Origin: Escherichia virus TH34 | DNA: 64,000 nt | Strand: one strand, 5' to 3' | Sequence record: MT446407.1 | In this document: piece after piece, positions 2,494-49,318 of the stretch | Position numbering within the stretch: position 1 is the stretch's first letter | How the letters are laid out: each line of letters begins with the position of its first letter | Program-made: the position numbers and the translations under genes | The notes under the pieces: model-generated | Databases searched by the model: none | Told to the model about the DNA's origin: nothing | Seen by the model: only the letters and a program-made list of their open reading frames with translations

Positions 2494-3396
2494 ATGGCTA
2501 AATCTTTCAATCTGGTTAATGAATCCGGTTTTAACGCACTGGCTAACAACATTCGCAGCAATAACGCAGCAATTAAGCAAGATGTTTCTAACTTCCTGTT
2601 AGGTCACTTACAGCACTTCCGTGCTAACGGTAAGAAGTTAGACGTGTTACAGGCGGCGGTAGACTTCCTGTTAACTGAACGTTACCGTGATTTAGATGTG
2701 ATTGCAGTTGCAATTTCTTTCCTAACTCCTGTTAAGTACAACAGCGACGCGGCGAACGGTAAAAAGAAATGGATTAATCTGGAAGGTGAAGCGAAAGCGA
2801 AAGAAGACGCTAAACCTGAACAAGTTAAGGCCAAAATGGAACAAAACCGTGCCCGCTGGTCTAACTCCTTTGAACGCTTTGCGAAAGGCGAAGACGTGCA
2901 GGTTGATAACCCAGCATTTTATAAAGGTTGCAACGACAACGTTCCGGTAGCAAATCAGATTAACCAGAAGGTTAACGAAAACTTTAATCAGGACATTTAC
3001 GCTTTAACTGATCGTTTGGCTGCAATCCGTATTGAAGCGGCACTACTGGCCGATGAACGCAACGGAGCATCTTCTGATAACACTATCGCATTGAGTGAAG
3101 AAGTAGGCAAAGTTAAGAAAACTTTCGATTCACTCCTTAAGAAAGTAACCGCATCAACTGTATCTATCAGCGATGACTACTTGATTAACGCATCTTCAAA
3201 AGAGCTTGAATCTCTGGACTCATACGCTGATGAAATGGAAAAGGCGATCAACGAAATGACCGAAAAATTGTCTAACCTTCGCGGTCGTATCTCAAATGCT
3301 TCAACTGTCAAAGCGAACGAGAAAGCGGCGGCAGACGAGGAAGAAGTATTGCGTAAAGCTGCCGAGATCATGGCAGCACGCCAACAAGCTGCATAA
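2494..3396 (+). CDS. hypothetical early protein (300 aa)
   Basis: First long ORF after the promoter leader; ATG 2494 with AAAGG upstream; no motif recognised. Confidence 0.6.
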   Translation: MAKSFNLVNESGFNALANNIRSNNAAIKQDVSNFLLGHLQHFRANGKKLDVLQAAVDFLLTERYRDLDVIAVAISFLTPVKYNSDAANGKKKWINLEGEAKAKEDAKPEQVKAKMEQNRARWSNSFERFAKGEDVQVDNPAFYKGCNDNVPVANQINQKVNENFNQDIYALTDRLAAIRIEAALLADERNGASSDNTIALSEEVGKVKKTFDSLLKKVTASTVSISDDYLINASSKELESLDSYADEMEKAINEMTEKLSNLRGRISNASTVKANEKAAADEEEVLRKAAEIMAARQQAA

Positions 3397-8328: not shown

Positions 8329-8633
8329 CAATTTCATCTTCAACTCGCTGCAACCCTAATGTAGATATCCGTGCTCAAATGTCTAAGATGCCCGGTGTGA
8401 CTCATTTAGAGTTCACCTACAGTCACTCGCGGTATGAACCGGGCTTTACTGTGGTAATAAAATCCCCGTGGTTAACAATGACATTACTGTCGGATGAAGT
8501 TGAGAAGGCAGTGAATGGTATTAAATCAGGCGGGCTTAAACTTTTATCCACTGAACTGGCTGATGAGTTCATGCCTCTTATCCGTAAAGGTGTGGCTAAA
8601 ATGAATAAAATGATGGAGGCTGCAAAGCAATGA
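8325..8633 (+). CDS. hypothetical protein (102 aa)
   Basis: ATGA-coupled ORF. Confidence 0.5.
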   Translation: MTISSSTRCNPNVDIRAQMSKMPGVTHLEFTYSHSRYEPGFTVVIKSPWLTMTLLSDEVEKAVNGIKSGGLKLLSTELADEFMPLIRKGVAKMNKMMEAAKQ

Positions 8634-9448: not shown

Positions 9449-9524
9449 GCACCCTTAGCTCAATGGATAGAGCAGCGACCTTCTAAGTCGTTGGTTACAG
9501 GTTCGAGTCCTGTAGGGTGCACCA
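9449..9524 (+). tRNA. tRNA-Arg: tRNA-Arg (anticodon UCU)
   Basis: Cloverleaf by eye: acceptor GCACCCT/AGGGTGC, D-arm GCTC-AATGGATA-GAGC, anticodon loop CUUCUAA, T-arm CAGG-TTCGAGT-CCTG, encoded CCA. Confidence 0.8.
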
Positions 9525-16531: not shown

Positions 16532-17158
16532 GTGAGCCTGTTAAGAGATTTTCAGCATTATTATTGCGGAACATGGATTGCCCAACGTGCAGAACGAGGG
16601 ATTAATTTACCTCTTTATGTACTCAACGTGAACCAAGCAAACCGCTTTGGAGAAGATGACTTCTCTCACGAAGCAGAAATGGCCTTAACTTTTGAAGTTG
16701 AACGCTGGTCTAAGAACGCCGAAGGGCAGTTTGAACGACAGGTTGTTCAGGGCATTCCTGTGTTTGATCAAAGCCTTATTCTGGAATCTCCAGATGTGGG
16801 ATACTTACAACACGGCAACAACATGGTAAGCTGGACTCATATCAACCCTGTTCGTCAGCGAGCTAAGGGTCTGATGGGGAACAAATTACGTGGTGCACCT
16901 CCTTCAATGGGTCGTTCGATTCCGGGAGAGCTGGTGTATAATCTGTTTAATCCTGACTTCGAAGGTCTGGTTACTCGCTTCATCTACATCAACCCTGTCG
17001 ATGGTAAAGTTTATTACAAAGGGGCACTTGTAGGTCAAGTTGATCTTTCTGCTGGTTACGGCGACAATGGTCGTCAATCTTTAAATCTTCTGGAGAAGTT
17101 CAAGCATATTTCTTCAGATCTGTCATCATATAATGTAGAGTTGGTGGAAACGTTATGA
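16532..17158 (+). CDS. hypothetical protein (208 aa), amide-ligase cluster
   Basis: GTG 16532 with AAGGTG upstream. Confidence 0.5.
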   Translation: MSLLRDFQHYYCGTWIAQRAERGINLPLYVLNVNQANRFGEDDFSHEAEMALTFEVERWSKNAEGQFERQVVQGIPVFDQSLILESPDVGYLQHGNNMVSWTHINPVRQRAKGLMGNKLRGAPPSMGRSIPGELVYNLFNPDFEGLVTRFIYINPVDGKVYYKGALVGQVDLSAGYGDNGRQSLNLLEKFKHISSDLSSYNVELVETL

Positions 17159-22083: not shown

Positions 22084-22326
22084 ATGTTGTCTATCGAAGA
22101 TTTGATCAGTCGTGGAATGACCGAACAAAAAGAACCTCTGATTGTTGGTTCTCGTAAAGCTATTAACCAACTCTGTGAAGAGTTTGGAATCACAAACAAG
22201 AGAATGATTGGTAATCAGTTCTCTGCAATTGTCACCTTCCTTAAACGAGGTGATAAATATTCAATGGAATGTGTTGAGCGTATCATCGCAATTGCACAAG
22301 AAGATAAGGGAGTAACAACTCTGTGA
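22084..22326 (+). CDS. hypothetical protein (80 aa)
   Basis: ATG 22084 with AAAAGGA upstream. Confidence 0.45.
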   Translation: MLSIEDLISRGMTEQKEPLIVGSRKAINQLCEEFGITNKRMIGNQFSAIVTFLKRGDKYSMECVERIIAIAQEDKGVTTL

Positions 22327-25025: not shown

Positions 25026-25567
25026 AGAAAATATTCGCCTTCGATATCGAGGGTGATAATCTCTATGAGGGCATCCAAAATGTCTGGTGTATCTGGATAT
25101 TTGATGTTCTTACAGGTGAACGGTGGGGGTATCGCCCTCACCAAATTGAAGAAGCTCTTCACAAACTGAAGGAAGCTGATATAGTTGTAGGACACAACAT
25201 CATAGATTTTGACCTACCAGCTCTCTTTAAATTCTACTCTCATGTAATACCTTTCCACTTCAATGTCTTTGATACACTTTGCCTGAGTCGTTATCTCAAG
25301 CCTGACCGTATTGGAGATAATCCAGAATATCCCAAAGGCGACCCTAGACATGGCCCTCGTGGTCATGGCCTCAAGCAATGGGGCGAATTTCTGGGTGAAC
25401 TGAAGGGTGATTATGGTGAGCAGGAAGAAGCATGGGATGCATTCACTGAAGACATGTTCACATATTGTGAGCAAGACGTTAACTTAACAGTTAAGGTTTA
25501 CATGTGTCTTTGCCAAATGGCAGGATTTGATTATAAGAATCCCCCATCTCTCAACTGGAAAATGTAG
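25019..25567 (+). CDS. stand-alone DnaQ-like 3'-5' exonuclease (DEDDy)
   Basis: Exo I FDIEG, Exo [11 protein letters not shown], Exo III YCEQD; TTG start overlapping helicase stop, GGGGAGG 7 nt upstream. Confidence 0.55.
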
Positions 25568-25569
25568 AA

Positions 25570-28160: not shown

Positions 28161-28230
28161 TTGGTAGTAGATATGATAACTCTCAAATGTATATACAGTA
28201 TAAGAATATTGTATGAAACAGGAGAGAGTT

Positions 28231-28560
28231 ATGTTAGATTTGAGTAAAGTGGCCCCGCCATCTGAAGAGATTAGCAAAGCTAAAGTTATGCAGCAGTTCT
28301 ATCATCGTGATATGCTTGGTCGTTATATCAAGAATCGTGATGTTGTTGCATGGTCTATTGGAAATCAAGGTTATCTTCTCAAAGTGTTGCAAGTTACTGG
28401 CTCAACAGCCAAGCGAGTCAAAGTCTATGACCCTGAAATGGGGCGTTCTAAGTCTGTAGACCCACAGAATTGCATTGTTATTACCCAGCAGGTCATGGAC
28501 AACATTGCTCGTAACGTAGCCAATTCAACCAATTTAGAAGGAGAGACTCCTAATGCATAA
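28231..28560 (+). CDS. hypothetical protein (109 aa)
   Basis: ATG 28231 with AGGAGAG upstream; track start 28213 contains the RBS. Confidence 0.4.
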   Translation: MLDLSKVAPPSEEISKAKVMQQFYHRDMLGRYIKNRDVVAWSIGNQGYLLKVLQVTGSTAKRVKVYDPEMGRSKSVDPQNCIVITQQVMDNIARNVANSTNLEGETPNA

Positions 28561-33462: not shown

Positions 33463-33474
33463 TAATGTATACTC
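33463..33474 (+). promoter_or_regulatory. TAATGTATA element (candidate phage-specific promoter)
   Basis: Exact TAATGTATA 29 nt upstream of ATG 33504; same core as 39779-39790 and minus-strand 49307-49318. Confidence 0.3.
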
Positions 33475-33503: not shown

Positions 33504-33827
33504 ATGATGACTGATAAGGCAAAACGTGATTATGCACAAGAAAGACGTACCGCAATCAAACGTGGGGAGACAGGTGTTGGTAGCAAGAGCGGAGATGCTC
33601 AGCGCCACCGTGCACGTCGCATCGTTGAAAAGCGCGATGGAAAAGCTGCTGTCCGAGGTAAAGATGTTGGACATAAACGATCAATCAAGTCGGGAGGTTC
33701 TAATGCGTCAAGTAACTTACGTGTTGAATCAGTCTCTGGAAATCGCTCGAACGGCGGCAAAAGTGGAGATCGTGCTGGAAAATCAGCAGGAGGAGTCAAA
33801 TCGAGAAAAGGCGCTCTAAGTCAATGA
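33504..33827 (+). CDS. hypothetical basic Gly/Ser/Arg-rich protein (107 aa)
   Basis: ATG 33504 with AAGGAG upstream; stop ATGA-coupled to next gene. Confidence 0.45.
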   Translation: MMTDKAKRDYAQERRTAIKRGETGVGSKSGDAQRHRARRIVEKRDGKAAVRGKDVGHKRSIKSGGSNASSNLRVESVSGNRSNGGKSGDRAGKSAGGVKSRKGALSQ

Positions 33828-38891: not shown

Positions 38892-39504
38892 AGTTTACTT
38901 TGCAGGTGATGGTCACCTAGGCCATCGTAACATCTGTAATTTTAGAAAGAAGTTTAGCAGTATTGAAGAACATGACAAAGCTATCCTAGCAGCTTTTGAC
39001 CATGTTACTAAACGTGATAAAACTTTCTTTACAGGTGATTGGGTGTTTGAGAGATATGCACTTGATGTTATCGCTGAAGTAAAAGGAGAGAAACATCTTG
39101 TCCTAGGAAACCATGACAGATTAGAACTTCTCCCTGATATGATGAAAGTCTTTAGACACATCAGTGGTGATTATAAATACAAAGAGTTTTGGGTAACTCA
39201 TATTCCTATTCACTCTGATGAAATGAGAGGAAAGTATAATATCTATGCTCATACTCATAACTCTACTATTAAAGATTGGAGATACTTTTGTACTTCTATG
39301 GAACAAATTGATTATAGAGCTGTGTCTCTGCAAGAGATTAGAAAAGAACTGGAAAGTAGGAAAGAGTGGGTAGCTTCTTTATTACAAAAAGATTATCCAA
39401 TTACCAGCGAAGTACAAGAGATGTTAAGCAAGCAAGCTGAATCTAACTTACCTTTTCAGAGAACAGTAGAACAAACTAGCTTTAAAGGTCTTTTAGAATG
39501 GTAG
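38884..39504 (+). CDS. calcineurin-like metallophosphoesterase
   Basis: GDGHLGH...FTGDW...LGNHD metallophosphatase motifs; ATG 38884. Confidence 0.5.
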   Translation: MAEVYFAGDGHLGHRNICNFRKKFSSIEEHDKAILAAFDHVTKRDKTFFTGDWVFERYALDVIAEVKGEKHLVLGNHDRLELLPDMMKVFRHISGDYKYKEFWVTHIPIHSDEMRGKYNIYAHTHNSTIKDWRYFCTSMEQIDYRAVSLQEIRKELESRKEWVASLLQKDYPITSEVQEMLSKQAESNLPFQRTVEQTSFKGLLEW

Positions 39505-39778
39505 AAGTTATTGTTTTTAAGTTAAGTTAATTAGTTTTCTTTTGATTTTAATAGAGAATCAAAGTCCTAGGAGTCCTCAACCTAAATCAAGGATTTCCTT
39601 AATTCTCTATTTTTATCTCGCAGGTGTCTCCTGCCCTTCGGTACTTGCAAGGGTTACGATGATTGCCCAATATACAAGCCTGCAATAGCTTTACTAGCTA
39701 TACCATATATACATTACTACTTACTATTATCTACTACCAAAAAGGTTATAGTATAATAGAACCTTATCTGTATAGGTG

Positions 39779-39790
39779 TAATGTATATAG
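39779..39790 (+). promoter_or_regulatory. TAATGTATATAG element (candidate phage-specific promoter) inside an inverted repeat
   Basis: Exact 12-mer 57 nt upstream of SSB-like gene; near-inverted copy at 39705-39716; AT-rich hairpin-dense context. Confidence 0.35.
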
Positions 39791-39846
39791 TATACCAACC
39801 GCTCAAAGAGAGCAACAATCTTGAATTTATATAAGGAAATATTAAT

Positions 39847-40587
39847 ATGTCTATGATCCCTGAACTGTCTGTATCCCGTAAATCCAACTACGATGTAATC
39901 CCTGATGGCGAGTACGAAGCACGCATTGTTCGTGTAGTAGGTTTAGGTGTTCACAATCGTGACCCTTGGATTGACCCTAAGACCAAAGCAGTTACTCCTA
40001 AGAACCCAGCTTTCCGTATGGACTTGGCATTTGAACTGATTGGTGTTGATGCTACTGGCACAGATAATGATGGTAAGGCATTGGACCCACGTCCTGCTTG
40101 TCAGTTTAAATCCTTCGATGTAAACCCACGAGCTAAGAACTCTGGTATTCTGAACCTAATTAAAATGATCGACCCAAGTGTTCAAGCACTGAAAGGTGAT
40201 TTGGGTTGGTTCAAAGATATGCTGCTTGGTCAGCCTGTCAACATTCTGGTTAACTCTTACACCAACAAAGCTGGTGAGAAGAAAAACTCTATCAAGAGCA
40301 TCACTCCAATCCCAACTAAGTATCGTGATGCTGTAGGTGCTCCTCGTAGTGAGTTGATCTTCTTCGAACCGTATGCTGAAACTGACGCTAACTTGGCTGC
40401 TTATCAAGCTATGTTTCCATTCCAACGTAACCTTCTGACCCAAGCTAATGATGCTAAAAACATCCCTCTGGCTGGTCGTGAAGTTACTCGCGCTTCTGAC
40501 ACTGAACAGAAAGACGCGACTCCAAGTATCCCTACTATTAATGAAGAGCCGCAATCTACCTTTGAAGAAGATGACAGCCCTTTCTAA
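39847..40587 (+). CDS. single-stranded DNA-binding protein candidate (gp2.5-like acidic C-terminal tail)
   Basis: Strong RBS TAAGGA; C-terminus STFEEDDSPF; strong terminator downstream. Confidence 0.45.
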   Translation: MSMIPELSVSRKSNYDVIPDGEYEARIVRVVGLGVHNRDPWIDPKTKAVTPKNPAFRMDLAFELIGVDATGTDNDGKALDPRPACQFKSFDVNPRAKNSGILNLIKMIDPSVQALKGDLGWFKDMLLGQPVNILVNSYTNKAGEKKNSIKSITPIPTKYRDAVGAPRSELIFFEPYAETDANLAAYQAMFPFQRNLLTQANDAKNIPLAGREVTRASDTEQKDATPSIPTINEEPQSTFEEDDSPF

Positions 40588-40610
40588 TGAATCTCTCCTT
40601 GTAATAGCTT

Positions 40611-40634
40611 AGCCACCTTCGGGTGGCTTTTTTC
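40611..40634 (+). terminator. rho-independent terminator
   Basis: Stem AGCCACC / GGTGGCT with TTCG loop then T6. Confidence 0.6.
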
Positions 40635-40646
40635 GTTGGAGTTAAA

Positions 40647-40994
40647 ATGGAAAAGCTTCAAAACAATATCGGCTTCTTAGTCTTTACAGCCCTTGTATTC
40701 TTTGGTGGGATGAAGTTTGAGCAATATCGAAATGATAGTAACACTCTTGACCAAGAGAAGAAACAACAAGAGATTGAGATTGAGAGAGCTAAGGCTGCTG
40801 ATGAAGTAGCTCAGAAAGTTCTTACCAGTATAACCAACTGGAAGAAGAACACAGAAACTATTTATAAAGAGATGCATTATGAAAAGACTAAGCCAGTTTT
40901 TTACAATGTGTGCGCTAGCGATGAGTATGTCAGCTTGTTCAACGAGCGACAACAGCAGGCAGCTAATGCCCTTACCAACAAACCTAAAAGCTGA
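40647..40994 (+). CDS. i-spanin (Rz-like) candidate
   Basis: ATG 40647 with GGAG upstream; N-terminal TM helix then coiled-coil. Confidence 0.4.
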   Translation: MEKLQNNIGFLVFTALVFFGGMKFEQYRNDSNTLDQEKKQQEIEIERAKAADEVAQKVLTSITNWKKNTETIYKEMHYEKTKPVFYNVCASDEYVSLFNERQQQAANALTNKPKS

Positions 40995-41139
40995 GTGTGA
41001 TGTTGATCTCCCTTTGCTTCAGAGTGCACAGGGAGTGGCATTTGCAACAACATTAGAGTGGTATCAGGACAACTACACAACCTGTGCTGCTAACCATAAT
41101 GGTTTACTGAAAGCTCTCAAGGAGAGAGGAATACAATGA
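40879..41139 (+). CDS. o-spanin (Rz1-like) lipoprotein candidate, overlapping Rz-like gene in +1 frame
   Basis: Signal peptide with lipobox-like MSAC; Pro-containing mature region; overlapped gene pair. Confidence 0.4.
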   Translation: MKRLSQFFTMCALAMSMSACSTSDNSRQLMPLPTNLKAECDVDLPLLQSAQGVAFATTLEWYQDNYTTCAANHNGLLKALKERGIQ

Positions 41140-41360
41140 TCAGAGCGGAACTTACAATACCAGAAGGTGTTACTCAACTTCATGCAGTATGGGAATATAA
41201 TAATCAGGTTTGGGGACGAACTTTTAAATTCTTTGTAGATGGAGATCAATCCTATTGGGCCTATTACGACCCTGAAGAAGATATGTGGATTAAGGTAAGT
41301 GGTATTCAGACAGCCATCCCTTGTCCTGACACAGCAATGTATTTGTTCTGTGTAGTTTAA
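41136..41360 (+). CDS. hypothetical protein (74 aa)
   Basis: ATG 41136 with GGAGAGAGG upstream. Confidence 0.45.
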   Translation: MIRAELTIPEGVTQLHAVWEYNNQVWGRTFKFFVDGDQSYWAYYDPEEDMWIKVSGIQTAIPCPDTAMYLFCVV

Positions 41361-41384
41361 TATAAAGTAAGTTAAGGACGACTT

Positions 41385-42035
41385 ATGAAGAAGAAGACAA
41401 CACCCACACGCTATCGTATTCATGGCATTCCTATTAAATATTATCCAACCTTCGATGAATTCTATCGAGAGAACTGGAAAGTTGTGCATCGCTATTTTAT
41501 GTATGACATTAAAGATTATCACGAAGCAGAGGATGTTGCTCAGGAAGTATTACTGAACGCTTGGCGTTTTGTGTTTGCAAAGCAAGAAGAACTTCTGCTC
41601 GCTGATGAAAAAGATATTGAACACATGACTTATCGTGTTAAGAATATCATCTGGTCTATTCGTTCTAACCGTCAGACAGTTGGAGATCGACGTATCTACT
41701 CTATTCCAGAGGCTGATATGTTTAGACCTCCTGAGATGAACTCATGGGAAAGTCCTTTAGAGATTGCGATGGATAAGCATGACTCTACTGGAGACCCCTT
41801 CTTGGAATCTAGAATCTTTTTCTTCTTCCAAGACTTAAGTGATATTATGGATACCAAGAAAATGGCAAGCATGTTCTCTATGCTCTTCCTTGGAATACCT
41901 CACGATCACATCCAGCAAGAGCTGGGAATTTCACACGGAACTTTCTATCGCCGATATGCAGAGAATCGTGATCTGTACGAAGCTGTAGTAGAGAAGCACT
42001 TTGATAAAGAAGATCTTCAAGGGATGATTCAATAA
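41385..42035 (+). CDS. phage sigma factor (ECF/sigma70 family)
   Basis: Region-2-like [16 protein letters not shown] and region-4-like [23 protein letters not shown]. Confidence 0.55.
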
Positions 42036-42631
42036 TGAGTAAACCATTAGTAGTAATTCTGAATGGACCACCGGGTTGTGGTAAAGATACAATCGCTAAT
42101 GCTTGGTTAGAGAAGACCGTCGGTAACACTGAGTTTAGGCCGCATGTAAAGGCTTTTAAGGAGCCTATGTATCGAGTGGCTGCTGCTGCATTAGGACTTC
42201 CTCTTTATGAGTTCATGGAGCTATACAACGATCGTGAGTGGAAAGAATATAGCCGTCCTGAATGGGGCGGTAAGACAGTTCGAGATTTAATGATTGCGAC
42301 TAGTGAGAACTACCTGAAACCAATGTTTGGTGACACCTGCATGGGTAAGCTTGCTGTTAGCAGTATTCAACAACGCATCCCAACACAGAATGATGTTATT
42401 GTATTCTCTGATGGTGGATTTAAAGCAGAAGTTGAAGAACTGGAAAAACATTTCCATGTTCGAGTAATTCAGATTCATCGTGATGGCTGTACTTTTGAAG
42501 GAGACTCTCGTTCCTATATTGAAGGCGCGAACCTTTCAACCTACCTTCTCTTTAATGATTGTTCTATAGAAGAGGCGGTGGAGTATTTAGAATACAGTAT
42601 TGCACAGACACGGAGAGATCTCTATGCCTGA
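42035..42631 (+). CDS. P-loop nucleotide/nucleoside kinase (dNMP-kinase-like)
   Basis: Walker A ILNGPPGCGKDT near N-terminus. Confidence 0.45.
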   Translation: MSKPLVVILNGPPGCGKDTIANAWLEKTVGNTEFRPHVKAFKEPMYRVAAAALGLPLYEFMELYNDREWKEYSRPEWGGKTVRDLMIATSENYLKPMFGDTCMGKLAVSSIQQRIPTQNDVIVFSDGGFKAEVEELEKHFHVRVIQIHRDGCTFEGDSRSYIEGANLSTYLLFNDCSIEEAVEYLEYSIAQTRRDLYA

Positions 42632-43445
42632 TGTAATCTATCCTGAAGTAGCAATTGTGGATGCAGATGTTCTTAGGTATGAAGTTGGTGCTCTTACACA
42701 AGAGCATCCTTTCCTAGACACAGGTCGTGTTCCAGTTGATTATGGATTCTTGATTGAACGTCTCCAACATAAGATTGATGTAATCATCTCAAGAACTGGT
42801 TGTGAAAGAACAATCTTTTATTTCAGCGAAGGTGGTAACTTCCGCTTCGATGTTGCCAAGCAGCAAGGTTATAAAGCTAACCGACCTCCGGGAGAAAGGC
42901 CACATCACTGGCAGAACGTTAGTGATTATATCAAAGAACATTACCAGTATGTTGAAGTGTTTGGCAGAGAAGCAGATGATGCACTCGCTGAACGACAGCG
43001 TATAGAAAAGAACACAATCATCTGTACTCGTGATAAGGATTTGTTAATCACTCCCGGATGGCATTACCGCTGGGCTTGCGGTGAACGACAGAAAGAAGTA
43101 CCCCCTCATTACGTATCAGAGGAAGTAGCATGGCAGAACTTCTTCTATCAGATGTTGATTGGAGACAGTACAGATAACATCCCCGGATGTGGTGAGAAAG
43201 TTGAAATGATGTGGGGCGGTAACTTAGTTATGCGTCGTAAGGGTATTGGTAGCAAAGCTGCTATCAAACTTATTGAGAAGGTATTCGATAAGTGGACTCT
43301 TTATCATATTATACGAATGGAATACTATAAGAGGTTCGAGGAAGAAGCAGAAGCTAAGATGTTAGAAAATGCTCGATTGCTCTTCGTTGGACAAGCTGAA
43401 GGCGACCTCTTTGATTGGTCGTGGTTAGATAAATCTTGGGAATAA
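42624..43445 (+). CDS. FEN-type 5'-3' exonuclease / flap endonuclease
   Basis: EADDALA, RDKDLL and GDSTDNIPG motifs typical of T5 D15/T4 RNase H/Pol I 5' nuclease; ATG 42624 with GGAGAG upstream. Confidence 0.55.
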   Translation: MPDVIYPEVAIVDADVLRYEVGALTQEHPFLDTGRVPVDYGFLIERLQHKIDVIISRTGCERTIFYFSEGGNFRFDVAKQQGYKANRPPGERPHHWQNVSDYIKEHYQYVEVFGREADDALAERQRIEKNTIICTRDKDLLITPGWHYRWACGERQKEVPPHYVSEEVAWQNFFYQMLIGDSTDNIPGCGEKVEMMWGGNLVMRRKGIGSKAAIKLIEKVFDKWTLYHIIRMEYYKRFEEEAEAKMLENARLLFVGQAEGDLFDWSWLDKSWE

Positions 43446-49306: not shown

Positions 49307-49318
49307 CTATATACATTA
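49307..49318 (-). promoter_or_regulatory. TAATGTATATAG element (candidate phage-specific promoter)
   Basis: Exact 12-mer on minus strand 33 nt upstream of the 1472-aa gene start. Confidence 0.35.

Follow-up and report, generated by a model that had tools for sequence, protein, structure and literature searches.

The Phage and the Layout of the Locus

The locus analyzed here is the spacer that precedes a plus-strand gene (39847–40587) that the annotation of some relatives describes as encoding an ssDNA-binding protein. It holds two divergent copies of a short recurring element and, to their left, a small hairpin, a noncoding block and, just past this block, a very AT-rich stretch (39505–39550); the gene of a phage sigma factor lies farther to the right (table 1). 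Judged from its sequence, the 64,000-nt stretch of DNA that was analyzed (hereafter the window) is that of a phiEco32-like E. coli podophage of the Gordonclarkvirinae. Escherichia phage Bas88 is 97.6% identical to it over positions 39000–43000, and the 98 phage records that match the ~4 kb around the element come without exception from phiEco32-like podophages (Gordonclarkvirinae) that infect E. coli or Shigella. The window mirrors the gene order of phiEco32 (NC_010324), with early and middle genes on the plus strand up to ~44.7 kb and late virion genes on the minus strand beyond this point. Near its left end, ~1.5 kb (963–2493) upstream of the phi32_124 ortholog (2494–3396) are devoid of any ORF of at least 50 aa on the coding strand, and a comparable unannotated gap of 1.9 kb separates genes 124 and 125 of phiEco32.

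Table 1. Positions of the Genes, Elements, and Noncoding Features Discussed in the Text, Counted from the First Nucleotide of the Window.
Feature	Position	Strand	Remarks
tRNA-Arg (anticodon TCT)	9449–9524		Found by ARAGORN and Rfam; counterpart of the single tRNA annotated in phiEco32
gp79 ortholog	22084–22326	+	80% identity to phi32_79 over 80 aa
P68-type middle promoter, by homology	28161–28195	+	Block TTGGTAGTAGATA at 28161–28173, −10-like AAATGTATATA at 28185–28195; predicted +1 ~28200
P58-type middle promoter element TAATGTATA, by homology	33463–33471	+	Predicted +1 ~33478; gene 33504–33827 is the phi32_58 ortholog
P40inv, candidate leftward gp36-type promoter	39706–39740	−	−10-like TAATGTATATA at 39716–39706, block TTGGTAGTAGATA at 39740–39728
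P40-type middle promoter element TAATGTATATAG, by homology	39779–39790	+	Predicted +1 ~39794; gene 39847–40587 is the phi32_40 ortholog
Hairpin AUAGCU-aguaa-AGCUAU	39685–39701	−	6 bp; spans +1 to +17 of the predicted leftward RNA
Near-invariant noncoding block	39545–39641		~100 nt; downstream (leftward) of P40inv
Phage sigma factor, ortholog of phiEco32 gp36	41385–42035	+	Identified by sequence matches
P26-type late promoter element TAATGTATATAG, by homology	49307–49318	−	Predicted +1 ~49303; gene 49273–44855 is the phi32_26 ortholog

A Recurring Element in the Spacers of the Window

An earlier note on this DNA had listed several copies of the element, all of which were found where it had placed them: two exact copies of TAATGTATATAG, one on each strand; TAATGTATATAT, one mismatch away, on the minus strand at 39705–39716; TAATGTATA ahead of gene 33504; and AAATGTATATA, the leftmost. 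The distances that it gave to the start codons of 39847 and 49273 were about right (56 and 33 nt, respectively), whereas the start at 33504 lies 32 nt, and not 29 nt, from the element. In terms of the consensus tAATGTAtA, matches are provided by TAATGTATA at 33463 (+), 39779 (+), 49318 (−), and 39716 (−), and by AAATGTATA at 28185.

With an order-2 Markov model of the window as background, exact long copies are clearly over-represented, with two occurrences of TAATGTATATAG against 0.008 expected, three of the 11-mer TAATGTATATA against 0.039, and four of TAATGTATA against 0.62. The core AATGTA is not enriched (32 observed vs. 38.9 expected), nor are versions of the motif with one or two mismatches, so that the signal is carried by the exact long copies and by where they stand. 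The five exact AATGTATA sites all fall in gaps between orthologs of annotated phiEco32 genes, and the gene-proximal copies stand upstream of the orthologs of genes 26, 40, 58, and 68. Intergenic position was judged by orthology to the phiEco32 annotation, as a mask based on ORFs is made unreliable by spurious TTG-initiated frames that cover real spacers. A few exact, long, and well-placed copies of this kind have the look of a small promoter regulon.

Three further [TA]AATGTAGA sites lie within ORFs, on the coding strand (8357–8365, 17131–17139, and 25560–25568). They read TAATGTAGA in two cases and AAATGTAGA in the third, the latter being the variant found at P6 of phiEco32. We rejected them as promoters, given that they carry a C at −34 and have no usable leader, and they are probably chance matches.

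Correspondence with the gp36-Dependent Promoters of phiEco32

According to three papers, the phiEco32 promoters used by the gp36 holoenzyme are located upstream of genes 6, 13, and 26, which are late, and 40, 58, and 68, which are middle, and they consist of a single element, tAATGTAtA, with transcription starting 6–8 nt downstream (PMC8948821; PMC4281155; PMC4331800). This is the phiEco32 precedent to which the earlier note had pointed. For six phages, supplementary table S3 of PMC8948821 gives TAATGTAgA at P6 and TAATGTATA at P13, P26, P40, and P58, and it lists a variant, aAATGTATA, at P68, the promoter present in the cryo-EM open complex (PMC12276001). We located the element at the six promoters in the phiEco32 sequence (NC_010324). 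The window sites at 49318 (−), 39779, 33463, and 28185 align with P26, P40, P58, and P68, respectively, including the A-for-T variant at P68, and P6 and P13 lie outside the window, to its right. The six phiEco32 promoters are credited to Pavlova et al. 2012 (J Mol Biol 416:389) in PMC8948821, PMC4281155, and PMC12276001.

The genes that follow the four sites are orthologs of the published promoter-proximal genes, with identities of 93% to phi32_68, 87% to phi32_58, 85% to phi32_40, and, for the 1472-aa virion gene, 79% to phi32_26. The 3′ flank of the P58 element is identical to that of phiEco32 P58, and the TAATGTATA of P40 shows no variation in 14 related phages. When the G of AATGTA is set as −11, the predicted +1 is A or G at all sites and lies within 7 nt of the element. 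In agreement with the earlier observation that none of the copies has a TTGACA −35 partner, a consensus promoter scan of the plus strand found no canonical TTGACA/TATAAT pair in 39200–40000; yet a 2025 cryo-EM structure has the C-terminal domain of gp36 in contact with the −35 region, at −37G and −34A (PMC12276001). An A at −34 is present at five of five window sites (the four sense copies and the inverted copy, P40inv) and missing from the three look-alikes within ORFs. At −37, P68, P58, and P40inv have a G and P26 an A, and P40 has a pyrimidine, T; both contacts were defined, by cryo-EM and mutagenesis, on the single promoter P68. Taken as a whole, the phiEco32 promoters and the sense copies of the window share the element, the genome positions, an orthologous sigma factor and gp79, and, in the window, the A at −34, and they differ in nothing beyond drift of the flanking sequence.

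ORF 41385–42035, which the earlier note had described as encoding an ECF-like sigma factor, is an ortholog of gp36 (81% identity to phi32_36) and matches a single solved structure, chain F of PDB 9m7y ("RNA polymerase ECF sigma factor"; E = 5e-119). In the cryo-EM structure, gp36 reads the −10 region through E79, H80, Y83, R84, W90, S91, S94, and N95, and the −35 region through Y186 and R187 (PMC12276001). Alignment to phi32_36 shows that the residues of the first set are unchanged in the window sigma factor and that those of the second are retained, numbered Y188 and R189. In phiEco32, gp79 has a dual action, as an inhibitor of the sigma70 holoenzyme and an activator of the gp36 holoenzyme; it displaces region 4 of sigma70, stabilizes gp36, and activates P26 4-fold in vitro (PMC12276001). 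The window thus encodes both a cognate sigma factor with its DNA-reading residues and the gp79 co-activator, as expected of gp36-dependent promoters of the phiEco32 type.

With the published gp36 element found upstream of the gene 26, 40, 58, and 68 orthologs, the initial interpretation of the repeats as promoters for the phage ECF-like sigma factor holds. We consider it very probable that the E. coli RNAP core, when associated with the gp36-orthologous sigma factor, recognizes this element as the −10-like part of its promoters. Promoter activity in this phage would be carried over by homology from phiEco32, and the four sense promoters are already known for this phage group and are not new. 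As in the phiEco32 complex (PMC12276001), the N-terminal domain of the sigma factor would read A−14, A−13, T−12, and G−11 of tAATGTAtA and stack on the fork junction, the DNA would open between −11 and +2, the C-terminal domain, stabilized by gp79, would contact G−37 and the T opposite A−34, and transcription would start ~7 nt past the element. P68, P58, and P40, on the plus strand, would act as middle promoters of genes for replication and nucleotide metabolism, among them the gene of the sigma factor, and P26 (49318, minus strand) as the late promoter ahead of the 1472-aa virion gene.

Two details of the downstream regions may be added. In ORF 28213–28560, similarity to phi32_68 begins at Met7 (28231), and the two ATGs are separated by a stretch that includes an AGGAG ribosome-binding site; the start of the phi32_68 ortholog is probably 28231 rather than the mechanically assigned 28213. 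In the P40 leader of gene 39847–40587, the sequence CGCTCAAAGAGAGCAACAAT (39800–39819) is 100% identical in 14 phages, and nearby positions vary. The gene 32 protein of T4 is autoregulated, and by analogy this leader segment might serve the SSB-like protein as a translational operator.

A Candidate Leftward Promoter Back-to-Back with P40

The "near-inverted copy" noticed earlier at 39705–39716 does exist, and it is more than a repeat, having the appearance of a promoter that faces the other way. Besides the −10-like element, P40inv shares with P68 the 13-mer TTGGTAGTAGATA in the same register and with the same spacing, together with the G at −37 and the A at −34. This 13-mer occurs exactly twice in the window, in P68 and in P40inv, and the composite pattern TGGTAGTANAT-N13-AATGTATATA yields these same two matches even when three mismatches are allowed (0.01 expected). 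In the whole of IMG/VR, the pattern was retrieved from only five contigs, which are 76–77-kb phiEco32-like genomes, each with one copy on either strand. As a source of relatives, IMG/VR contributed no more than five genomes, most of which GenBank already had. The inverted copy is also present in phiEco32 (NC_010324, 36704–36712, plus strand). Apart from the promoter blocks, the 11-mers common to the P40inv/P40 spacer and the rest of the window are at chance level.

Comparison of 18 phages delineates two fixed blocks in P40inv. Positions −38 to −28 are invariant save for a G/T alternation at −30, the 12 positions of the spacer from −27 to −16 all vary, and positions −15 to −5 are again fixed save for one G-11A substitution; the TA at −1/+1 is invariant as well. 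Two fixed blocks held apart by a free spacer of fixed length are a classic promoter footprint. The G-11A change affects a base that is reportedly critical for recognition by gp36 and belongs to a 68-kb metagenome contig (ERZ1034915 NODE_75), which reads TAATATATATA and is the sole relative seen with an altered inverted element.

The predicted +1 of P40inv is the A at 39701, which is also the first nucleotide of the 6-bp hairpin of table 1. The helix is paired in 99% of alignment cells on the minus strand, with compensatory changes in two pairs, and it was recovered again in a separate consensus fold. In eight sequences a G-C pair is replaced by G-U, which would be an A·C mismatch on the plus strand. 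Because of its P68-like blocks, its conservation footprint, and the hairpin at its predicted +1, we lean toward regarding P40inv as an additional leftward promoter of the gp36 type, which would fire from ~39701 away from gene 40. Unlike the sense copies, it does not stand directly upstream of the gene 68, 58, 40, or 26 ortholog. P40inv is not among the six experimentally identified gp36 promoters given in the text and supplementary table S3 of PMC8948821, and a search of the literature, in which Pavlova et al. 2012 was covered through the papers citing it, retrieved no antisense or divergent promoter in phiEco32-type phages.

In myPSH2311 and SDYTW1, the sequence between the two divergent elements contains an insertion of ~125 nt (at window position ~39748) that leaves the promoter blocks intact. 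The TATAAT found here at 39752–39757 has only poor −35 candidates (ATCTAC/TTATCT), which fits a remark in the SU10 genome paper that this spacer has a sigma70 promoter whose −35 is poor (PMC4281155).

A Near-Invariant Noncoding Block Downstream of P40inv

Leftward of P40inv and its hairpin, mean column identity among 14 phages rises to 0.94–0.98 over 39554–39630, as compared with 0.2–0.7 in the flanking gene ends and spacers. The ~100-nt block (39545–39641) contains the palindromes TCCTAGGA and AAGGAttTCCTT, a hairpin (GCAGGtgtctCCTGC), a long inverted repeat, TAGAGAAT...ATTCTCTA, with TTTTTAT behind it on the plus strand, and two copies of a direct repeat, GTCC(C)TA, both of which lose a C together in one clade. 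The minus-strand consensus fold has many G-U pairs, and one A-to-G change maintains its pair on the minus strand only, whereas folding energy does not separate the strands (z = −2.25 for minus and −2.34 for plus). The segment that separates the hairpin from the block (window positions 39642–39683) exists in different phages as either of two unrelated modules; that of ECBP2, MN05, myPSH2311, and SDYTW1 is ~25 nt longer than the one in the window.

Searches for known features returned little in this region. Rfam, at a permissive threshold, recognized no family in 39300–39900, and at the gathering threshold the tRNA-Arg was the only hit in the entire window; no consensus terminator was found in 39200–40000. 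Two ORFs with TTG starts downstream of P40inv (28 and 22 aa) were rejected as genes, as ECBP2-type phages have an unrelated module in their place and the lengths of the indels that distinguish clades are not divisible by three. A metagenome scan with a 16-mer from the block gave almost exclusively chance matches and a single true relative, the contig with the altered element mentioned above.

The block could be an unusual terminator, the body of an sRNA, or an origin element. P40inv might likewise give rise to a small RNA, to an antisense transcript that enters the gene upstream, to a primer for replication, or to no product at all. We tentatively propose, at somewhat less than even probability, that P40inv is a seventh gp36-dependent promoter, common to the whole subfamily, that makes either a structured noncoding RNA composed of the 5′ hairpin and the block or a transcript priming or activating an AT-rich replication origin.

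Alternative Explanations

The recurrences might be chance matches in AT-rich intergenic DNA or functionless relics of duplications, and chance frequency is indeed what is observed for the AATGTA core, for variants of the motif with one or two mismatches, and, roughly, for several spacer 11-mers that recur elsewhere in the window. Chance, however, does not produce the excess of the exact 11-mer, nor the position of the gene-proximal copies upstream of orthologs of published promoter-proximal genes; with elements that are invariant while the neighboring spacer positions all vary, the conservation pattern effectively refutes this explanation, to which we attach a negligible probability. The copies could also be extended −10 promoters of host sigma70, acting instead of or alongside the phage sigma factor. 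The motif has a TG directly before TATATA, a perfect TATAAT lies between the divergent elements, and the SU10 genome paper considers that middle genes are possibly expressed by both holoenzymes and predicts sigma70 promoters near CDS68 and between CDS37 and CDS38 (PMC4281155). Nevertheless, the consensus scan of 39200–40000 found no sigma70-type site on the plus strand, the conserved A−14, A−13, T−12, and G−11 are exactly the bases contacted by gp36 (PMC12276001), and the corresponding phiEco32 promoters are used by the gp36 holoenzyme, with sigma70 transcription being shut off by gp79 (PMC8948821; PMC12276001). A role of sigma70 at these elements is, in our opinion, very unlikely.

As for the inverted pair (39698–39796), it could serve as a protein operator, or as a sink or roadblock for RNAP that tunes P40 or insulates it from read-through, without any functional leftward transcript. 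Such a role would suit two elements placed back-to-back, with ~14 bp (39741–39754) between their −35 regions, in a region with several palindromes where the search for a leftward terminator, an ORF, or a known RNA family came up empty. It would account less well for a leftward element that has the full bipartite architecture of P68 and not just the common 11-mer, and the hairpin located exactly at the predicted +1, with its compensatory changes and with G-U pairs that hold on the minus strand only, is hard to explain without a minus-strand RNA. We regard this alternative as improbable, and a leftward promoter of the gp36 type as the preferred reading of P40inv.

Comparison with Other Phage Systems

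The late promoters of phage T4 depend on gp55 and consist of a single TATAAATA element at −10; gp55 is devoid of a region-4-like domain and is activated via gp33 and the sliding clamp. The likeness with the gp36 system lies in a highly divergent phage protein of the sigma family, in a single extended −10-type element, and in the lack of a canonical −35 hexamer. Unlike gp55, gp36 has a sigma4-like C-terminal domain, which is positioned at the −35 region and stabilized by gp79 (PMC12276001). Another parallel is Salmonella phage 7-11, whose gp47-dependent late promoters have the consensus GTAAtg-N16-aCTA (PMC8948821). In this phage, promoters of the phage sigma factor are found at equivalent genome positions, including upstream of gene 48, the gene-40 ortholog, but the consensus is different, the sigma factor is only distantly related (~15%), and both gp79 and the middle class are absent. 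Phage 7-11 also differs in that only the sense promoter, and no inverted copy, was found at the orthologous spot upstream of gene 48.

At the primary origin of T7, the phi1.1A/B promoters are followed by an AT-rich stretch, and phage RNAs stabilized by 5′ hairpins are also known. P40inv recalls a promoter-primed origin of the T7 type in that a phage promoter would face a conserved noncoding segment and then the AT-rich sequence at 39505–39550, and it recalls the hairpin-stabilized RNAs by the stable hairpin at the very 5′ end of its predicted transcript. We view both likenesses as analogies and not as membership in either class.

Implications for phiEco32-Type Phages

Phages of the phiEco32 type are a model system with a solved holoenzyme–promoter structure. 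By orthology with this biochemically and structurally characterized system, four middle and late promoters, their predicted starts, the sigma factor, and its co-activator can be placed in the window. The current phiEco32-type map comprises six promoters of the phage sigma factor, all of them for mRNAs. If true, a seventh promoter devoted to a noncoding RNA or to an origin would add a missing piece to this map, and the phage sigma factor would have a job besides mRNA synthesis.
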